From contig JBDRUH010000028.1 of assembly GCA_039801225.1 (NCBI GenBank), forward strand, positions 5,953-17,550: 11,598 nt of DNA. The letters are read 5' to 3'. A model generated the notes under the pieces. It was not told the DNA's origin, searched no databases, and saw only the letters and a list, made by a program, of their open reading frames with translations. Origin of the DNA: a candidate division WOR-3 bacterium. Its GTDB lineage: Bacteria; Hydrothermota; Tepidihabitantia; Tepidihabitantales; Tepidihabitantaceae. Positions 1 through 11,282 of this stretch are shown here, one piece after another; positions within the stretch are counted from its first letter, which is position 1, and every line of letters starts with the position of its first letter. A program made the position numbers and the translations under genes.

Positions 1-161
1 TGTTTTAATAATTGGGACCCCTCGCCCCGTCATTCCGACCGAGCCCCTCACCTCTGTCATTCCGACCGAGCCAACGGCGAGTGGAGGAATCCCTTCGCTC
101 GGGGCAGGCTTTGGTATTAGAGATTGTTTAGGATTTAGTGCTTTGAAATTAGGATTTAGAA
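1..161. repeat. Composite REP-like/MITE-like repeat, copy 1 (left arm cut off by window edge)
   Basis: Near-identical to 7161-7324. GTCATTCCG units at 29 and 56, core GCCAACGGCGAGTGGAGGAATCCC, CTTCGCTCGGGGCAGGC module, then heptamer-rich arm TTGTTTAGGATTTAGTGCTTTGAAATTAGGATTTAGA. Confidence 0.93.
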
Positions 162-179
162 CATATTAAATGGTTTGGC

Positions 180-3458: not shown

Positions 3459-6005
3459 TTAAAAGTTACCCAGTGGCTCATATAGTTTAAAGCCGAGTGT
3501 CCAGCGAAGGGCAAAGGGTCTCTCCCCTTCTTCTGGATGGCTTTTCCAAATTGGAAAGTCGGCATAAAACATTCCCAACTTCAGCCGGATTCCGGCATCA
3601 AACAAGGGCTTAAAGAAATCGGGTTGATTTAGACTGTCAGCAACATTACCAATATCAAGAAATGGTTGTAAGCCGAGAAACGGCAGGTGTAAATTTATAT
3701 TTATACCATAAGCATATCTACCATGGTGATAAACTCCGTAGTATCCCCGGCAGTTCACATCTCCATCATAGTGCCAGCGCTCCTGACCCGAGAAAGAGCC
3801 TTTGTATCCCCAGGAGAGCGGCTCTGCAGGTGTATATGAAAGCCCACCAGAGAGGTAAAACTCCTCCTGGGCGGGCGCGCTCCCCGATATTAACCCGGCA
3901 AATAGCCGGATGGTGAAAGGAGTTATGCCGGGGAGAAATGTCGTAGATTTTTCCTCCAGACTTATCTTGGTATATTGGAACTGCGACAGAACCGGCTTGA
4001 GCGCTCTGCTGAATGTGAGTCGGTGCTTGAATTGAAAAAATGGCGTCTCGCTCCAACTCCCTAAGGTGGTTTTGATTTCTCCAGTGCGCCCCTTTTCCCA
4101 GGCGCGGGCATCTCTTCCGGTGGTGTCAAGAAGTTCATAAAGCCGATACCCAATATTGAATTCGCTTCTCGGTAGCCGGAAAGGCGGACCGATTTCACCA
4201 TTGAGATATACCCTTACACCCCGGTCCCGGAATGAGTTGTCACCGGTAAGACATAATCTCAACCGGCAGGGAGAAAAGAGAAGCGGAGTTTGATAACTGA
4301 TTCCGGTATGCCAGTCCGACTTGTTGGAGTTATAGTTCTCCAGAATGGTCCACTGATGTTCGCCCCGGAGAGGTCCAGCGTCAATGAATCTTCTTCCTTG
4401 GAGCCAGACTCCGGGCTGAAACCCACGATAGTTGTCATACCAAAACCAGGGACCATAAAAAATCTGATAGGTCTCAAAATCGGGAATTGCAAAAATGGGG
4501 TTAAAAAGCTTAGGTTTAGGTCTGGGTTCAGGTTGAGTGTAGGGCACTCTGTTTTGGCAGGTCGATGTGTGACTACCTCCAGATTTACTTTCCTTAACTG
4601 TAATCGGGAAAGCAAGGTTAAAGCCTTGCTCTACCGCTTTAACCTTGGCCTCATCTCCAGCAATGTCCGTGATGCTATTTATTAATGCTTCAACTGTCGG
4701 CGAAGTGCCCCGCTGGGAAAAAAGATAGTGCCGGAGGCAAGAGTCAAATACCATTGTCCCCAGTTCTTCTTCTATTTTACTAAAAACCAGCACCGCCTGC
4801 GATTTACCCACCGCCTCCCGGGTGAAACGGTCCGGTGTTTTTTCAAAGGGAGTAATTATCGGACGGGAGAGGTGATTGGTTGCAGCAATATAGTAATAAA
4901 TACGGTGCAGGTATTCATCAGAAATTCCCTTCAGGAAAGGAATGTTTATTGGCAGGTCAAGTAAATTATCAGCGCCATAAAGGGTTTTTAGATAGCGCAT
5001 CGCCGCATAAGCGGCAAGACCATCGGTTAATGCTGGGTTTTTCTCGCTCTCCGGGTTAACGATTTGACCAAACCATTGACGGGCTATCTCGGTTACTATC
5101 TGCCGTTCCAATAACCGGGTGCCGGGCACTGGTTTCTGATTAAAAATCACTATTCCCGGGGCAGAAATCTCTCCAGGCGCAATGCCAGTTCCATCAACAA
5201 TCGTCAACTGAGGAAAAGGATAATTTCCAAACCACCGGCTAAAAAGCCCCAGACTCAAACGGGCATAAGAGATGATTGCTGACGCTTGCTTTGCCAGGTG
5301 TTGGGAAAGAAAAAGATTAACTCTTGGGGTGGTTGAAGAGTCGGTAAATATAACAAACCGTTGCCCGACAACTAAGCCAAAGTCAGACACATTATTAGCC
5401 CGGAAACGATATCCCGCCTGAGAGCCGGATGATAACGGCTCACCGCTACCCGCCACTTTATAACCCGGTGGCACAACCAATGATATTAGGTAGTCGGCAA
5501 ACACAACTCCACCGGTATCACTTTTGACTTGAGGATGCCAATGAGTAAGTATAAAAACTGAACCCTTTCTTCCCAGATTTTGAATAAGGGCTGGCAGCTT
5601 AGTTGTGAATGATAGTTCTATTACCACTGAATCACCCGGGCTCAACGGCTGGGGAAGAAACAGTTCCATATCAGTCTCATCAATACGATATCGAGCAGGG
5701 GTATTCCCACATTTGAGGAACTCAATTTCAATATCACCCCGCTCCTTTCTACTCAAACGGGTGAAATCATACTGTCCGTTCCTTTCCAGTTCTCTTACCA
5801 GTCGGGTTTGCCGATTGCGAAAAGCGTTCGGGTAAAGCAAGAAGTGAAGTGAGTATAGCGCTTCGGCACTCTGGTTCCTGACGGTTATGGTGCTAATTCC
5901 ATTGATGACGGCTTTTTTCGGCTCAAGCACGGCATTTATTCTATAGGTTATATTAGCAGGGTGAAGCGACAAAAAAATCAGCCCAAGAAAGCAGGAAATT
6001 ACCAC
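3459..6005 (-). CDS. Exported protein: degenerate M1 aminopeptidase-like domain plus C-terminal Omp85/BamA-like beta-barrel
   Basis: Hydrophobic N-terminus. M1-like segments YRINAVL, FLLYPNAF, FGNYPFPQLTIV, TEIARQWFG. Barrel-like segments FYLSGG, NCRGY, FLDIGNV, DAGIRL and terminal Phe. GTG start overlaps the upstream stop. Confidence 0.75.
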   Translation of the reverse strand: MVISCFLGLIFLSLHPANITYRINAVLEPKKAVINGISTITVRNQSAEALYSLHFLLYPNAFRNRQTRLVRELERNGQYDFTRLSRKERGDIEIEFLKCGNTPARYRIDETDMELFLPQPLSPGDSVVIELSFTTKLPALIQNLGRKGSVFILTHWHPQVKSDTGGVVFADYLISLVVPPGYKVAGSGEPLSSGSQAGYRFRANNVSDFGLVVGQRFVIFTDSSTTPRVNLFLSQHLAKQASAIISYARLSLGLFSRWFGNYPFPQLTIVDGTGIAPGEISAPGIVIFNQKPVPGTRLLERQIVTEIARQWFGQIVNPESEKNPALTDGLAAYAAMRYLKTLYGADNLLDLPINIPFLKGISDEYLHRIYYYIAATNHLSRPIITPFEKTPDRFTREAVGKSQAVLVFSKIEEELGTMVFDSCLRHYLFSQRGTSPTVEALINSITDIAGDEAKVKAVEQGFNLAFPITVKESKSGGSHTSTCQNRVPYTQPEPRPKPKLFNPIFAIPDFETYQIFYGPWFWYDNYRGFQPGVWLQGRRFIDAGPLRGEHQWTILENYNSNKSDWHTGISYQTPLLFSPCRLRLCLTGDNSFRDRGVRVYLNGEIGPPFRLPRSEFNIGYRLYELLDTTGRDARAWEKGRTGEIKTTLGSWSETPFFQFKHRLTFSRALKPVLSQFQYTKISLEEKSTTFLPGITPFTIRLFAGLISGSAPAQEEFYLSGGLSYTPAEPLSWGYKGSFSGQERWHYDGDVNCRGYYGVYHHGRYAYGININLHLPFLGLQPFLDIGNVADSLNQPDFFKPLFDAGIRLKLGMFYADFPIWKSHPEEGERPFALRWTLGFKLYEPLGNF

Positions 6006-6661
6006 CCATTGCCCCCTTCGCTTTGCCGAACTACCGGCGTGAAAACCTCAAGACAAATTTTCTGAATCTCGTTGAGTATTCTTTCATCCAGCCCCTGTTT
6101 CTTGAATTGCTTTACCAGACGGGAAAACTCTCCGGACCAAGCATCAGGAGACACCACCCGAATAACAGTGCAAATAGACCGAAAGAACGAAAAATAACCC
6201 CGGCGGCTAATAGCAGGCATCCGTTTAAACCGGAAAATATCGTCAACGGCAACTTCTGCCTTTTTCACCAACTGCCATAACCGCTCTCCCTCTAAAGCCT
6301 TTAATTCATCAGCCTTATCTTTGGGTAAATGTATCGCGGTTTCTCTTGACCGGGGAGAAAGAATTACTACCGGCTCACTTGTCTCTAATTCACCTTCGCC
6401 AAGAGTAATTTTAGCCAAAACATCTGCCACATCCCTCCAAGTTGCTCCACAGGCATTAAGGAACCCGGTGAGTGTCCGCAGCGTCGGATTGGGCACAAGC
6501 CCTTTTTCCAGCCTAAGTATGTATTTATACCCATGTTTAGGATTCAAACCTAACTTCTCTGCCAATTTCATCTGCGATATACCCGCCTTAACTCGCAACA
6601 TCCTTAACCGCTCACCAAACTCCTCCATACCTCTTAGCGCAAATTTCTTTTTTGATACCAT
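5999..6661 (-). CDS. XRE-family helix-turn-helix transcriptional regulator with uncharacterised C-terminal domain
   Basis: FGERLRMLRVKAGISQMKLAEKLG...ILRLEKGLVPNPTLRTL matches the HTH_XRE pattern. Alternative start ATG 6628. Confidence 0.85.
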   Translation of the reverse strand: MVSKKKFALRGMEEFGERLRMLRVKAGISQMKLAEKLGLNPKHGYKYILRLEKGLVPNPTLRTLTGFLNACGATWRDVADVLAKITLGEGELETSEPVVILSPRSRETAIHLPKDKADELKALEGERLWQLVKKAEVAVDDIFRFKRMPAISRRGYFSFFRSICTVIRVVSPDAWSGEFSRLVKQFKKQGLDERILNEIQKICLEVFTPVVRQSEGGNGW

Positions 6662-7100: not shown

Positions 7101-7324
7101 TCTAAATCCGAAATCCTAAATTCTAAACAAATTCAAAGCACAAATGTTCTAAATCCAAAATGTTTTGATAATTGGGACCCCTCGCCCCGTCATTCCGACC
7201 CCCTCGGCTCTGTCATTCCGACCGAGCCAACGGCGAGTGGAGGAATCCCTCTCGGCTTCGCTCGGGGCAGGCTTTGGTATTAGAGATTGTTTAGGATTTA
7301 GTGCTTTGAAATTAGGATTTAGAA
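7101..7324. repeat. Composite REP-like/MITE-like repeat, copy 2 (complete)
   Basis: Terminal inverted repeat TCTAAATCC (7101-7109) / GGATTTAGA (7315-7323). Imperfect heptamer arms (AAATCCG/AAATCCT/AAATTCT) enclose a GC-rich core with GTCATTCCG at 7189 and 7212. Confidence 0.93.
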
Positions 7325-7340
7325 GATGTACCCTACTGCT

Positions 7341-7631
7341 TTAATTTGTGACCTTAGCAACTTTTATTTCCATCGTCTGTGGTTTGTCCCGCCGGTCGTC
7401 TATTTTAATCGTGGTGAGCAGACGGGCGCACCCCATCTGGGCAAGGGTATCATGAATCTCCTTGACTACAGAAAAGACCTTCTCCCACTCCCCTTCTATG
7501 CAGGTGCCCATCGGATTCACCGCATATTTCAAACCGCTTTTTTTAATTAACTCAATTGCCGTTTTAACAAACTGACTAACACCGGTTGAACCGGTGCCAA
7601 CTGGCACAACGCTTAACTCAATAATTATCAT
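7341..7631 (-). CDS. MTH1187/DUF77 family thiamine-binding protein
   Basis: ELSVVPVGT...VSQFV, NPMGTCIEGEW, TTIKIDDRRDK. SD GGGGGTG upstream. Confidence 0.88.
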   Translation of the reverse strand: MIIIELSVVPVGTGSTGVSQFVKTAIELIKKSGLKYAVNPMGTCIEGEWEKVFSVVKEIHDTLAQMGCARLLTTIKIDDRRDKPQTMEIKVAKVTN

Positions 7632-7648
7632 TTCACCCCCTCTCTCTT

Positions 7649-8167
7649 TTAAATAAATTGCTCAAACCGGTCCTTTGTCGCCTTACATATCGGACATTTA
7701 CCAGGCGGTTCTGCTCGGGCACAGAGATAGCCACACACCTGGCAACGCCAGACTGGATAGGCAAGGCGGACCACCCCGGTCTTTGCCTCTTTCTTCTCCG
7801 TCACCGTGTAACCTTCGGTAACAAACTGTGGTGGTCGTCTTTCCGGAATAGACCGGTGAGAAATTTTTCCATTAATCCAGTCTTCACTAACATAAAGGGC
7901 ACAGTAACAGGCACCAAACTCCTCTATGTCCGAGTCCCGATAATAGCAGGGGCAGATGATGTCAATGTCCTTTGCCTTCTGCCCCAAGGGCAACCGGCAG
8001 GGGCAGGCGGGATAACCGTAACGCTCCTTATTTGTCAAAAGCCCTGCCACCAGTTTCAGCGTGAACTCCTTATCCGGATTGAGGTAATACCCCGCCTCTT
8101 CAGCCTCCTTTTTCAACTGCTCGTAAAACTTGAGCACCTCGGGTGCGAGCCCTTCTCCCATACTCAA
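7649..8167 (-). CDS. Ferredoxin:thioredoxin reductase catalytic-subunit homolog with C-terminal rubredoxin domain (ferredoxin:disulfide reductase, FDR-type)
   Basis: CPC, CPC and CYC motifs. Rubredoxin-like WRCQVCGY...CPIC. ATGA overlap with the upstream gene (alternative start 8161). Confidence 0.92.
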   Translation of the reverse strand: MSMGEGLAPEVLKFYEQLKKEAEEAGYYLNPDKEFTLKLVAGLLTNKERYGYPACPCRLPLGQKAKDIDIICPCYYRDSDIEEFGACYCALYVSEDWINGKISHRSIPERRPPQFVTEGYTVTEKKEAKTGVVRLAYPVWRCQVCGYLCARAEPPGKCPICKATKDRFEQFI

Positions 8168-8445
8168 ATGCCCAAGAGTTGCTTTATTTTCTCTTCATCA
8201 AACCCGACTACCACCTCATTGTCAATCTGAACTGTCGGAAAGGAACTGCGCGGGTTAAGCTCCTGCACCCGTTTTATCGCCTCCGACCTTTCTTCCCCCT
8301 GGCAAAGGTCAACATCAATGTATTGATATTCTATATTATTACTCTCCAGCAACTCCTTCGTTTTACGACACCAGCCACAGGTGGAAAGGGCATAAAGGGT
8401 TACCCGGTGCTGGTTATTTGTTCCGGCCACTTTCTTAAAGTTCAT
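8164..8445 (-). CDS. Glutaredoxin/NrdH-like redoxin (methanoredoxin-like)
   Basis: LYALSTCGWCRKTK active site, SFPT cis-Pro loop, VVGF. SD AGGAGG. Confidence 0.92.
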   Translation of the reverse strand: MNFKKVAGTNNQHRVTLYALSTCGWCRKTKELLESNNIEYQYIDVDLCQGEERSEAIKRVQELNPRSSFPTVQIDNEVVVGFDEEKIKQLLGI

Positions 8446-8458
8446 CCTTCCTCCTTTT

Positions 8459-8992
8459 CTATAATTTTTCTCCGCATTCCGGGCAGGTTGTTACCCCCTT
8501 GGGCAGCGGCTTTTTGCAGGCAGGGCAGCGGATTATTTTCACACCACAGGGTTGACAGAACTCGGTCTCACCTGAAACCGGTTGATTGCAGTAGGGACAT
8601 CGGCACACCTTTGCGCCCTCCTTCTCCTTCACCTTGCGCAAATAGTCCGCTATCGCCGCATGCAGGGCATCGGCCCCCAAGTTGGAACAATGGAGTTTAT
8701 TTGGTGGTAGACCGCCCAGTTCCTTTGCCACCTCTTCGTTGGTAATCTTCAGCGCCTCCTCAATCTTTTTTCCCTTCGCCATCTCACTCACCATTGAAGA
8801 TACCGCAATCGCCGCACCACAACCAAAGGTCTTAAACTTCACATCGGTTAAAACGCCATCCTTCACCTTAATATAAAATGTCATCATATCACCGCATACT
8901 GGATTGCCCACCTCACCCACACCATCGGGGTCTTCAATCTCACCGACATTTCGCGGGTTGCGAAAATGTTCCATTACTTTTTCCGAATACAT
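8459..8992 (-). CDS. iscU: Fe-S cluster scaffold IscU/NifU-N with C-terminal double zinc ribbon
   Basis: YSEKVMEHFRNPRN, GNPVCGD, FGCGAAIA, LPPNKLHC. Four extra C-terminal CxxC motifs. SD AGGAGG overlaps the upstream stop. Confidence 0.93.
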   Translation of the reverse strand: MYSEKVMEHFRNPRNVGEIEDPDGVGEVGNPVCGDMMTFYIKVKDGVLTDVKFKTFGCGAAIAVSSMVSEMAKGKKIEEALKITNEEVAKELGGLPPNKLHCSNLGADALHAAIADYLRKVKEKEGAKVCRCPYCNQPVSGETEFCQPCGVKIIRCPACKKPLPKGVTTCPECGEKL

Positions 8993-9003
8993 TAAATTTC
9001 CTC

Positions 9004-10230
9004 CTAATTATTTTCTTTATGATTTTCCTCTTGTCCAGATTTGACCGCATAAGGGTCTTCTCCCTTGAGATAGCGGGCGTAAAGCGGTGAGAGGTTGCGT
9101 AACCGCTCAACAATCGCCGGCAGACGCGCCAGCAGATAGTCAACATCCTCATCGGTATTGTCCTTACCCAAAGTAAGGAGCAGAGAGGATTGGGCGATAG
9201 CATGGGGAAGACCGATAGCGAGTAAAACATGCGATGCCTTAAGCGTCCGGGCGGTGCAGGCCGAACCCGATGCTGCGGCAATACCCTCATCATCCAGGGA
9301 CAAAAGCAATGCCTCGCCTTCAACGAATTCAATGCATAGGCTAACATTGCCCGGAATTCGCTCTTGGGGATGACCGGTAAACAAAATTCGCTCAATTTTT
9401 TGTGGCAGTTCATCTCTGAGTCGCTGGGCAAGCCGGTTCATACTCGCTGACCAGGTGGAAAGGTTTCGCTGACATATTTCTGCCGCCTTGCCCATTCCGA
9501 CAATTGCCGGTAGGTTTTCGGTGCCAGCACGTCTGCCCCGTTCCTGAAAACCACCCTCTATCAGAGGGCTTATCCGGGTCTGGGGCTTGATATAAAGCGC
9601 ACCGACACCCTTCGGTCCATAAAAGGACTGGGCAGAAAATGAATAGGCGTCAATGTCAAGTTCGCTAACATCCACCGCTATTCTGCCCACCGCCGCAGTG
9701 CCGTCCGAATGCACTAATACACCCTGTTCATGGCAGACCTTCACTATTTCCTTAAGCGGCTGAATGGTGCCAATCTCATTATTGGCATGCATTATTGAGA
9801 CAAGAATCGTGCCCGAGTGAATCGCCTGAGCCACCTCCTTCGGGTCAACCCGGCCAAACTGGTCAACCTTCACCACCGTCAACTCAAACCCCTGCCTTTT
9901 CAAACTTTTTACCGGCTCAAAAACCGAGGGGTGTTCAATTGCCGAAATGACAATATGGTTTCCCTTTGCTCGGTTTGCCCCAGCAAAGCCTTTTATCGCC
10001 AGGTTGTTACTCTCTGATGCCGAAGCGGTAAAAATAATTGAGTTAGCCTTAGCGTTAATCAGCCGGGCGACCTGCTCTCTTGCCCTTTCCAAAGCATCCC
10101 GGGCAATAATGCCAAAATGGTGAAGACTCTGGGGATTGCCAAATTTTTCTTTCAGAAAAGGAAGCATCTCCTGAAGCGCCTCAGGCAGGAGCGGTGTTGC
10201 CGCCGCATGGTCAAAGTAAACTCTTCTCAT
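9004..10230 (-). CDS. iscS: IscS/NifS-family protein with degenerate PLP catalytic site
   Basis: FGNPQS, IEHPSV, HANNEIGTIQP, FYGPKGVG, RAGTEN and SGSAC are present, but SAHK reads SAQS and SLRFS reads SLLLT. Confidence 0.9.
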   Translation of the reverse strand: MRRVYFDHAAATPLLPEALQEMLPFLKEKFGNPQSLHHFGIIARDALERAREQVARLINAKANSIIFTASASESNNLAIKGFAGANRAKGNHIVISAIEHPSVFEPVKSLKRQGFELTVVKVDQFGRVDPKEVAQAIHSGTILVSIMHANNEIGTIQPLKEIVKVCHEQGVLVHSDGTAAVGRIAVDVSELDIDAYSFSAQSFYGPKGVGALYIKPQTRISPLIEGGFQERGRRAGTENLPAIVGMGKAAEICQRNLSTWSASMNRLAQRLRDELPQKIERILFTGHPQERIPGNVSLCIEFVEGEALLLSLDDEGIAAASGSACTARTLKASHVLLAIGLPHAIAQSSLLLTLGKDNTDEDVDYLLARLPAIVERLRNLSPLYARYLKGEDPYAVKSGQEENHKENN

Positions 10231-10755
10231 TTACTATTAGACTACTTTTCGGGAATAAGGGATTTGAAAATTCTGAAAAACAAGGTCAAATATTATTTTA
10301 GATGAAAACAGGCAAAAGGCAAACCAAAGGCTGAATTCAATATTGATTTTCACCCGGTTTTAAAATAAAAATTTCATTAGATTTTTAGATGGACTGGAAC
10401 TTTTCCTTTTGACTTTCTTCTCAATTCAGATTTTTTACCGCTTTTTAGTTTAGAACTTAGTGTCAAAGAAAAAAACCGTTTAACCCAAATTTTTAGACCA
10501 AGTTTTAACACTATCCCTTCACTTGATTTACCACTTGAATTTAAATCATATTTTAACATCAAACCAAAAACCTATTTAGGAAAGGGTTTTACCACCCTAG
10601 TGCTGGAGGGGACAGCCCCCCAGGTAAACCTGTCTTTAAATTAAGTTATTTAATTGCGAGACTTAACTCAATTTTAGCCATTAGAATTTTGTGTATATAT
10701 AAATACACTTAGCCTTTACACACTTTTCCTTAAAGAAAGAGTTAGGATTGTAGTT

Positions 10756-10900
10756 ATCATTCCGTAACCCTCGGCTCCGTCATTCCGAGCCCCTCGGCTC
10801 TGTCATTCCGACCGAGCCCCTCACCTCCGTCATTCCGACCGAGCCAACGGCGAGTGGAGGAATCCCTTCGCTCGGGGCAGGCTTTGCCGAGGAATCCCTC
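10756..10900. repeat. REP-like repeat, copy 3 (expanded core, no heptamer arms)
   Basis: TCATTCCG units at 10757, 10780, 10803 and 10830. Same core as copies 1 and 2, plus a second GAGGAATCCC. Confidence 0.92.
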
Positions 10901-10907
10901 AGAAGAA

Positions 10908-10965
10908 GGATAAGGTTAAGGTTGAGGAGTGGCTGTGGTCCGTCCTCTTAACCTTAACCTATATC
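10908..10965. repeat. Imperfect hexamer-repeat hairpin
   Basis: GGATAAGGTTAAGGTTGAGGA pairs with TCCTCTTAACCTTAACCTATATC. Confidence 0.7.
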
Positions 10966-11282
10966 TGCGGATTCGTGGTATCTTCATCAGAAGCGGTTGA
11001 GGCGTGCATATCCGGAAAACCTCAAAAAGTCACTCACCACCAACCCGCAAAATATCTGAACTGAAGCCCATCCCTTTCCACCTCCTCATATGCACCCTTG
11101 AGTCCTGAACCAAATATTTATATCCACCACCAATTCCAAGTTTCAATGAGTATTGATCGGCGAGCAAAAAACTGCGCCCCTGCTAAATAAAAAAGATATC
11201 GGTCAGAGGAGACCGAGGAGAAAAGATGGCGGTCGGCTTCCTATCCTCCCTTCTTGGTTCTCTTACTTTGACAAGGGGGGAT

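Follow-up and report, generated by a model that had tools for sequence, protein, structure and literature searches.

What may drive Fe-S cluster assembly in a bacterium in which the cysteine desulfurase homolog encoded beside the scaffold lacks its catalytic lysine, and which part may a redoxin and its reductase play in the same gene cluster? The question is raised by five genes of a candidate division WOR-3 bacterium, found in an 11,598-nucleotide stretch (the window) which covers positions 5,953 to 17,550 of contig JBDRUH010000028.1 of assembly GCA_039801225.1 (C28:5953-17550). The source genome (G000) measures 1.50 Mb, is split into 72 contigs and is 88.8% complete. All genes of the cluster lie on the minus strand. 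They encode an IscS/MisS-like protein of 408 aa (9004..10230), an IscU scaffold of 177 aa with a C-terminal double zinc ribbon (8459..8992; NifU_N, 6.3e-51; DZR, 8.7e-8), a glutaredoxin/NrdH-like redoxin (Grx) of 93 aa (8164..8445; Pfam Glutaredoxin, PF00462, 2.3e-14), a ferredoxin:disulfide reductase (FDR) of 172 aa which joins the catalytic domain of ferredoxin:thioredoxin reductases (FTR) to a rubredoxin (7649..8167; FeThRed_B, 6.6e-23; RUBY_RBDX, 2.2e-13), and, as last gene of the cluster, an MTH1187-family protein of 96 aa with the thiamine-binding-protein fold (7341..7631; Thiamine_BP, PF01910, 6.3e-36). A first reading of the sequence (the original prediction) had listed gaps of 11, 13, -4 and 17 nt between these genes, and the same values are obtained from the coordinates of the open reading frames (ORFs); at the negative gap the first 4 nt of the FDR gene are shared with the end of the redoxin gene. 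The answer preferred here, at slightly below even confidence, is that electrons pass from ferredoxin to FDR and then to the redoxin, which acts as dithiol reductant of the scaffold complex formed by the IscS homolog and IscU.

The IscS homolog has the complete fold of class-V aminotransferases (PF00266, Aminotran_5, E 1.9e-80, profile positions 1-371 of 371) and matches PDB entry 4eb5 with an E-value of 8.9e-121. The status of single residues was read from the alignment to E. coli K-12 IscS, and E. coli numbering is used. The lysine which binds pyridoxal phosphate (PLP) is replaced by serine (K206 to S202), and replacements are found also at H205 (Q201), Q183 (A179), R354 (L351) and T76 (S72). 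The motif S-x-H-K, which holds the PLP lysine, reads SAQS, and the HMMER alignment to PDB 9wep agrees (SAQS vs SAHK). Residues H104, N155, D180, S203, T243, and the loop cysteine Cys328 (C325, in ASGSACTAR), are retained. Two features of type I cysteine desulfurases, fold and loop cysteine, are thus present, and the PLP lysine and the contacts made by Q183, H205 and R354 are missing. The protein scores under the NCBIfam equivalog cut-offs of NifS (476.7 vs 530.75) and IscS (385.2 vs 643.2). The absence of the lysine had been spotted in the original prediction, and three further active-site residues prove to be lost with it, the loop cysteine being kept. By its residues the protein is predicted to be unable to work as a PLP desulfurase, and is classed as a pseudo-enzyme. 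IscS homologs without the PLP lysine are called Lys-less below.

The loss of the active site appears to be old and maintained. Serine occupies the lysine position in 26/26 orthologs of family f1, the family of the source organism within WOR-3. The lysine is absent also in 16/16 orthologs from five other WOR-3 families, which feature Ala, Thr, Gly or Gln instead, and in 120/120 of the 90%-identity clusters closest to the window protein. Cys328 is retained in all the Lys-less WOR-3 orthologs and closest clusters compared. Among the 150 nearest representatives at 50% identity, 24 are without the lysine. An unrooted tree of 153 IscS sequences was built with FastTree after removal of 11 fragments or fusions, and its support values are of the SH-like kind alone; at least three changes on the supported branches are needed to explain the distribution of Lys-less proteins. 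The WOR-3 clade falls outside a supported (98) 43-row clade, which holds a clade with Thr in place of Lys. Inside the 43-row clade lies a Lys-less clade of 5 rows (98), two of which have Lys changed to Asp; the latter clade presumably corresponds to the type described in Archaeoglobus fulgidus.

A. fulgidus IscS is reported to be inactive, to carry Asp in place of Lys, and to supply a cysteine ligand to the cluster held on IscU (PMC7585200; this and the other papers named below are cited from the parts of their text that were available). The window protein resembles this non-catalytic IscS in the type I fold, the replaced lysine, the retained loop cysteine and the neighbouring IscU gene, and in neither case are Hsc, IscA or Fdx genes found alongside (IscS2-IscU; PDB 4eb5, 4eb7, 4hvk). 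The two differ as the window protein has Ser and not Asp, and has lost Q183, H205 and R354 too; moreover, the window IscU bears the double zinc ribbon, and the operon continues with redoxin, FDR and MTH1187. The view that the IscS homolog is not a sulfur-releasing enzyme is upheld, and its loop cysteine is kept as in A. fulgidus, where the role of cysteine ligand has been proposed. Should the mechanistic readings given below be wrong, the operon would still illustrate clearly how a pseudo-desulfurase can be conserved.

The five genes are found in one order and one orientation (IscS, IscU with or without a fused zinc ribbon, Grx, FDR, MTH1187) in 26/26 f1 loci fetched with 5-kb flanks, from 12 genera. 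Their linkage is more than chance. It is not confined to one genome, which would have spoken against a functional unit, but is family-wide, and Lys-less IscS and FDR genes are linked also in Anaerolineae/Thermoflexales and in one more bacterial locus, L066. Full-length FDR was found in 28/36 other f1 genomes sampled; in one of the family genomes (G004) the FDR gene is broken off by N's.

The redoxin has the active site CGWC at residues 23-26, and CGWC is found in 25/26 f1 loci. The protein reaches none of the NCBIfam equivalog cut-offs; its best match is the YruB family (67 vs 88.55). The FDR features the motifs CPC (55-57), CPC (72-74), CYC (87-89), CQVC (142-145) and CPIC (158-161), that is, an FTR catalytic domain with the cluster and disulfide cysteines, and a C-terminal rubredoxin domain. 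Residues 10-172 match PDB 4tpu (E 3.1e-60), and the alignment pairs every Cys motif. Entry 4tpu, named only 'Rubredoxin', we take to be the Methanosarcina acetivorans FDR. The window protein is not an FTR of the plant or cyanobacterial kind, as it has CYC and not CHC, and matches FTR catalytic chains only weakly (E 1.6e-6 or higher). The Methanosarcina protein has the same architecture, and a small redoxin is encoded alongside.

In the mechanism proposed, the IscS homolog would dock on IscU and lend Cys325 as cluster ligand or as sulfur-accepting thiol, by analogy with the A. fulgidus IscS-IscU pair. Reduced ferredoxin would pass electrons to FDR at its rubredoxin domain and its 4Fe-4S/disulfide centre, and FDR would in turn reduce the CGWC redoxin, as gene linkage suggests. 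From the same linkage, the redoxin may be expected to act on the IscS-IscU complex by turning persulfide sulfane sulfur into sulfide, by keeping ligand thiols or disulfides reduced, or both. The job of the redoxin would be that of Fdx in the canonical ISC system and of dithiothreitol (DTT) in vitro. DTT is reported to drive cluster assembly on IscS/IscU faster than Fdx/FNR/NADPH (PMC4547094). The window system and canonical ISC share an IscS-IscU core in need of two electrons per sulfur, and the role proposed for FDR and redoxin parallels that of Fdx/FNR. In contrast to canonical ISC, no [2Fe-2S] Fdx, HscAB, IscA or IscX was found and no IscR gene is adjacent, and the proposed donor is a dithiol protein, rather than a one-electron ferredoxin acting directly.

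The operon most likely provides the housekeeping Fe-S system of the cell, and this would be of the minimal (MIS) type, because other systems are not found. Profile searches of the genome gave no second NifU_N match, and the window IscU is the only U-type scaffold; the SUF/SMS core (SUFBD_core, PF01458) was not found in the genome. Among 41 genomes of the family, NifU_N is present in 41 and SUFBD_core in 1. No hscA, hscB, iscA, fdx or iscX gene resides in the window, and tblastn of the genome with E. coli K-12 proteins revealed no HscB, IscA, Fdx or IscX. In the same search, the E. coli ISC proteins matched only an Hsp70 (42% identity) and, weakly, an Rrf2-like protein, both encoded on other contigs, in agreement with the earlier remark that no hscAB, iscA, fdx or Rrf2 gene is adjacent to the cluster. 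Of the canonical operon (iscR-iscSUA-hscBA-fdx-iscX), homologs of IscS and IscU alone are found. MIS has been described as a two-component system with a cysteine desulfurase (PMC12192291, PMC13066941). The window features the same two-component core (MisS and MisU) of adjacent IscS-like and IscU-like genes, with no chaperones, A-type carrier or Fdx found. It differs in that MisS is an active desulfurase and the catalytic residues of the window protein are gone, and in that redoxin, FDR, MTH1187 and zinc ribbon are fixed in the operon.

Whence does the sulfur come? A canonical paralog of NifS/IscS type, with the His-Lys pair, Arg354 and the loop cysteine, is encoded on contig C15. It is 44% identical to the window IscS homolog, has S, H and R at positions Q183, H205 and R354, and has no IscU gene beside it. 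Orthologs (53-80% identity) reside in 37/41 family genomes, G000 included, two of them being partial; the one in G013 adjoins IscU. No ortholog was found in G016 (95% complete), G031, G033 and G064. The neighbours of the C15 gene (TackOD1/Mrr-like, LspA, archease) were considered as a clue to the sulfur acceptor, and are uninformative. Of the two systems which might have been encoded elsewhere in the genome according to the original prediction, a canonical desulfurase is thus present, and SUF was not found. Sulfur would most likely be delivered in trans by the C15 desulfurase, or come as free sulfide.

The original prediction went further, and regarded assembly as cysteine-independent: sulfur would come from sulfide or polysulfide, the IscS homolog would be only ligand or carrier, and ferredoxin, FDR and redoxin would free sulfane sulfur or keep thiols reduced. 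This full model is improbable. It fits the dead IscS and the A. fulgidus precedent, as well as the use of sulfide reported for minimal systems (PMC7585200, PMC13066941, bioRxiv 10.1101/2024.03.20.586028, all in the parts available), and also the four family genomes in which the canonical ortholog was not found. Lys-less IscS genes are, as detailed below, generally flanked by genes of the sulfane-sulfur carriers TusA and DsrE2. However, nearly all family genomes keep the canonical desulfurase, which is why the model is rated low and why cysteine independence is unsupported for the organism; and profile searches of the source genome found no TusA or DrsE_2 which might carry polysulfide sulfur.

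How tightly is the redoxin-FDR pair bound to the scaffold? When species-representative genomes were scanned for FDR, 59 distant loci were obtained, spread over many phyla of bacteria and archaea, and in 59/59 the gene immediately upstream of FDR is Grx-like. Redoxin and FDR form a portable two-gene module. An IscS-family gene (>150 aligned residues) was found in 11 of the 59. In seven FDR loci the IscS is Lys-less, and of a different kind (K206T, H104D, Q183H, with R354 kept), which the IscS tree places in a part with support of its own; six of the loci (L010, L014, L015, L018, L021, L062) come from closely related Anaerolineae/Thermoflexales, the seventh being L066. The IscS of L009 does not extend over the lysine site, and L016 and L017 are fragments of the Anaerolineae type at contig edges. 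In Anaerolineae the gene order is IscS (Lys to Thr), IscU-DUF59, TusA, DsrE2, a small Grx-like protein, a rubredoxin-like protein, Grx, FDR, and these organisms thus carry both the TusA-DsrE2 and the Grx-FDR modules. In no fewer than two separate lineages, f1 on one side, Anaerolineae and L066 on the other, Grx-FDR is joined to a Lys-less IscS-IscU cluster. Considering all FDR loci, IscS/IscU-family genes are found at a distance of up to 6 kb from FDR in WOR-3 f1, Anaerolineae, L066, two Myxococcota metagenome-assembled genomes (MAGs) and one Spirochaetia MAG.

Two of these loci feature details of their own. In the Anaerolineae locus L014 the small Grx-like ORF between DsrE2 and Grx-FDR (L014:5225-5479) has an in-frame TGA at the expected first Cys of CxxC (K-G-TGA-L-F-C), and is a candidate UxxC selenoprotein. 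In a Myxococcota MAG (L035:2991-11600), as named by reading the translations, an MnmA-like tRNA thiolase gene is followed by Grx, FDR and, on the opposite strand, a ZIP transporter; next come a three-domain NifU, a canonical NifS, and rubrerythrin-like, thiol peroxidase-like and desulfoferrodoxin-like genes. The FDR pair here adjoins canonical NifUS and antioxidant genes.

In other WOR-3 families the place of the pair is taken by other genes. The cluster of family f2 reads rubrerythrin, Lys-less IscS, IscU, zinc ribbon, DsrE2, TusA, rubredoxin, MTH1187, so that in f1 Grx and FDR, the latter with its own rubredoxin domain, sit in the slot held in f2 by DsrE2, TusA and rubredoxin. DsrE2 and TusA follow the Lys-less IscS also in f7 and in three f5 loci (L171, L174, L176); a fourth f5 locus (L177) has a partial DsrE2 match only. 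Full-length DrsE_2 was found in just 3/41 f1 genomes. In the FDR tree, 27 f1 sequences lie on one side of a supported branch (95), where 0/14 FDRs of other WOR-3 families are found, a split which would fit acquisition by transfer. Besides the Lys-less gene, f5 genomes contain two tandem IscS-like genes, 41-46% identical to the window protein (G047:C17:10115-12539; G044:C50:13725-16238; G040:C55:11002-13328; G052:C32:38089-40418).

The association of TusA and DsrE2 with Lys-less IscS extends beyond WOR-3. Metagenomes were scanned with Lys-less IscS seeds and a motif common to most IscS, and the 80 loci which came closest in sequence to the first query were kept, 36 with a Lys-less and 44 with a canonical IscS. 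Genes for TusA, DsrE2 or both were found in 21/36 Lys-less vs 0/44 canonical loci, and in 12/19 vs 0/18 when loci with at least 2 kb on each side were considered. The Fisher p-value for the whole set, 5.5e-10, overstates the case because relatedness was not corrected for. Carriers next to the Lys-less IscS only would fit a sulfur supply which does not depend on the adjacent IscS. The combination Grx-FDR-MTH1187 was found in 2/36 Lys-less loci, both of f1 type, vs 0/44 canonical ones. Classical rubredoxin genes are near 3/36 Lys-less vs 0/44 canonical IscS genes, numbers too small to be used. The expected co-occurrence of Lys-less IscS with FDR and redoxin stands as a fixed trait of f1 and Anaerolineae and is seen in L066, but is not supported as a strict rule.

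Single metagenomic loci deserve a mention. In L181 (L181:3935-11532) a Grx-like ORF and a thioredoxin-reductase-like flavoprotein precede a Lys-less IscS (Lys to Gln), IscU, zinc ribbon and TusA; rubredoxin-rubrerythrin, rubrerythrin, a flavin reductase-rubredoxin fusion and a flavodiiron-like protein follow. An apparent FDR match in this locus was rejected, being the rubredoxin domain of a rubrerythrin. In L192 (7541-8686) and L200 (7846-8775) an IscS (Lys to Gln)-IscU pair is followed by the gene of the 4Fe-4S enzyme quinolinate synthase, NadA.

Several observations weigh against a dedicated role of the redoxin-FDR pair at the scaffold. In one family genome (G022) Grx-FDR is missing from the cluster of Lys-less IscS, IscU, zinc ribbon and MTH1187, and a full-length FDR is absent from the whole genome; another (G014) retains IscU and MTH1187 alone. 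In sister WOR-3 families Grx-FDR adjoins the antioxidant genes rubrerythrin or peroxiredoxin, and not the Lys-less IscS of these organisms. No IscS-family match was found in the fetched stretch of 47/59 distant FDR loci, and one further locus has only a weak class-V aminotransferase match (23%). Recurrent neighbours of the pair are genes for 2-oxoacid:ferredoxin oxidoreductases, including those for pyruvate (15 loci), rubrerythrin, ferritin, peroxiredoxin and nitroreductase. In three FDR loci (L024, L035, L065) the IscS/NifS nearby is canonical and carries the lysine. A Methanosarcinaceae MAG has the order TusA, DsrE2, IscS (Lys to Thr), IscU-DUF59, with FDR on another contig, and in a Methanoperedens genome an IscS (Lys to Asp)-IscU pair has no FDR nearby. 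Finally, the source genome encodes a class III ribonucleotide reductase (NrdD, contig C8), and enzymes of this class are a published kind of FDR client. Strict dependence of the scaffold on the redox pair, as implied in the original prediction, is not supported in view of G022 and of the scarcity of Grx-FDR in Lys-less metagenomic loci.

The same data bear on the main rival explanation, in which redoxin and FDR are a general ferredoxin-linked thiol system, serving class III ribonucleotide reductase, peroxiredoxin or other disulfides, and merely sited in the iscSU operon of f1 with no direct role at the scaffold. The siting might result from drift of gene order, or from a benefit of co-expression, as FDR is itself an Fe-S/rubredoxin protein. 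The explanation is favoured among rivals because of the many unrelated contexts of a pair which is autonomous in all the distant loci, and because G022 manages without it, and is to be regarded as possible, though unlikely. FDR is reported to reduce a thioredoxin in M. acetivorans, and, according to the title of a reference in the same paper, to deliver electrons to the class III ribonucleotide reductase of M. barkeri (PMC6262447, in the part available). In contrast to these published clients, the pair of the window and of Anaerolineae is embedded in a Lys-less iscSU cluster. A general thiol system would hardly account for the recurrence of IscS/IscU genes near FDR in several unrelated lineages, nor for the insertion of the f1 pair exactly in the f2 slot of DsrE2-TusA-rubredoxin. 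NrdD, searched by tblastn with the protein of the genome itself, is adjacent to FDR in 0/99 FDR-centred loci. The genome also encodes a canonical thioredoxin system, made by a TrxB which scores over the curated cut-off and two thioredoxin-family genes; FDR and Grx would therefore be a second, more specialised reductase system. On balance, the role of dithiol reductant of the scaffold is preferred.

Taken together, TusA-DsrE2 for delivery, and rubredoxin or FDR-Grx for electrons, appear to be accessories which may replace or supplement one another around a Lys-less IscS-IscU core. A broader reading, offered tentatively and rather unlikely to hold as a whole, is that Lys-less IscS-IscU would be a distinct and widespread machine, which receives sulfane sulfur through TusA-DsrE2 or from a desulfurase in trans, and is reduced by dedicated low-potential modules, the WOR-3 variant having hard-wired the reductase. 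MIS is held to be an ancestral Fe-S machinery. If the broader reading were true, dedicated reduction modules (rubredoxin, or ferredoxin, FDR and redoxin in sequence) would fill two gaps of MIS, that of the electron donor and that of the 'missing factor'. A 2026 review calls the electron donors of MIS and SMS unclear (PMC13066941, in the part available), and a 2024 preprint, in which iscSU alone, taken from either A. fulgidus or M. thermoacetophila, did not complement E. coli, asks what is missing (bioRxiv 10.1101/2024.03.20.586028, likewise). One candidate donor is the FDR-redoxin pair, fixed in a whole WOR-3 family and in Anaerolineae; the other candidate factor is the TusA-DsrE2 relay, sited beside most Lys-less IscS and no canonical one sampled. 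The two associations together turn an open question on minimal Fe-S systems into a testable one. Methanosarcina, which is genetically tractable, appears to have the TusA-DsrE2 variant plus an FDR. In M. acetivorans, IscS1 lacks the Lys, IscU1 has a mass of 24.2 kDa, and the cluster of the two includes four further genes of unknown function (PMC7585200, in the part available); the TusA-DsrE2-IscS cluster of the Methanosarcinaceae MAG presumably corresponds to this isc1 cluster (IscS1, MA0808; IscU1, MA0807). All the part families, and a dead IscS beside IscU, are already known. The fixed association of such a pair with FDR-redoxin, and the broader tie between Lys-less IscS and TusA/DsrE2, appear undescribed: no paper joining FDR or TusA/DsrE2 with Lys-less IscS was found in a search which left most of the subscription literature outside.

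What do the remaining parts of the operon add? The IscU domain (residues 1-125) has intact scaffold ligands (C33, D35, C58, H101, C102, and LPPNK at 95-99), and scores over the cut-off of the NifU_clost equivalog (TIGR03419; 201.7 vs 187.9 bits). The double zinc ribbon, with four CxxC motifs, is fused to it at approximately residues 130-177 (window 8462-8605). Many relatives encode it in an ORF of its own, 57-65 aa long, which overlaps or abuts the IscU stop (e.g. L100:4526-4720, L163:5070-5243); it thus travels with IscU as a module. The MTH1187 protein scores 109.8 vs 54.7 bits (NCBIfam TIGR00106). In f1 and f2 its gene is the most persistent accessory, and stays by IscU without Grx-FDR, and even without the Lys-less IscS; it is beside IscU in L143 (G014), L144 (G022) and the f2 loci L162-L163, of the DsrE2-TusA variant. 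A canonical, Lys-bearing IscS lies by IscU in G013, which has no FDR and is the sole family genome with SufBD.

The persistence of MTH1187 next to IscU might be taken to mean that the cluster is a sulfur-trafficking unit for thio-cofactors such as thiamine, in which the IscU-like protein is a sulfur carrier of SufU type. TusA/DsrE2 relays serve many sulfur pathways, which would suit this explanation too. It is nonetheless very improbable, as the scaffold residues of IscU (C, D, C, H, C, LPPxK) are all kept and the NifU_clost cut-off is passed, and as the protein is the sole scaffold candidate in a genome where SUF was not found. MTH1187 is, moreover, present in 0/59 distant FDR loci and in just 2 of the 80 metagenomic IscS loci, both of f1 type.

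The region around the operon offers few signals. A candidate promoter, a weak sigma-70-like match (TTGCCT-16-TAAAAT), lies at 10295..10322 on the minus strand, 65 nt upstream of the IscS start; in a promoter and terminator scan of the region, match counts were no higher than in shuffled sequences. Rfam and tRNA searches of the window gave no matches. A repeat roughly 150 nt in length, which contains units of some 25 nt around GTCATTCCGACCGAGCC, lies between genes at window positions 21-164, 7177-7327 and 10744-10886, that is, at the window start and on both sides of the operon. The idea that the repeats mark the operon as a mobile unit was rejected because the repeat is scattered over the whole genome (62 high-scoring segment pairs on 37 contigs by blastn). 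Downstream of the operon lie a helix-turn-helix gene (5999-6661) and the gene of an 848-aa protein (3459-6005) with a weak M1-peptidase match; their order is kept in 7 f1 loci, and is synteny by descent with no evident tie to the operon. Upstream of the IscS gene, approximately 1 kb (10231-11282) is AT-rich, has no ORF of at least 100 aa and includes one repeat copy, and the contig ends at 11598. In 10 f1 relatives, unlike the window, the gene next upstream of the cluster codes for an arginyl-tRNA synthetase.

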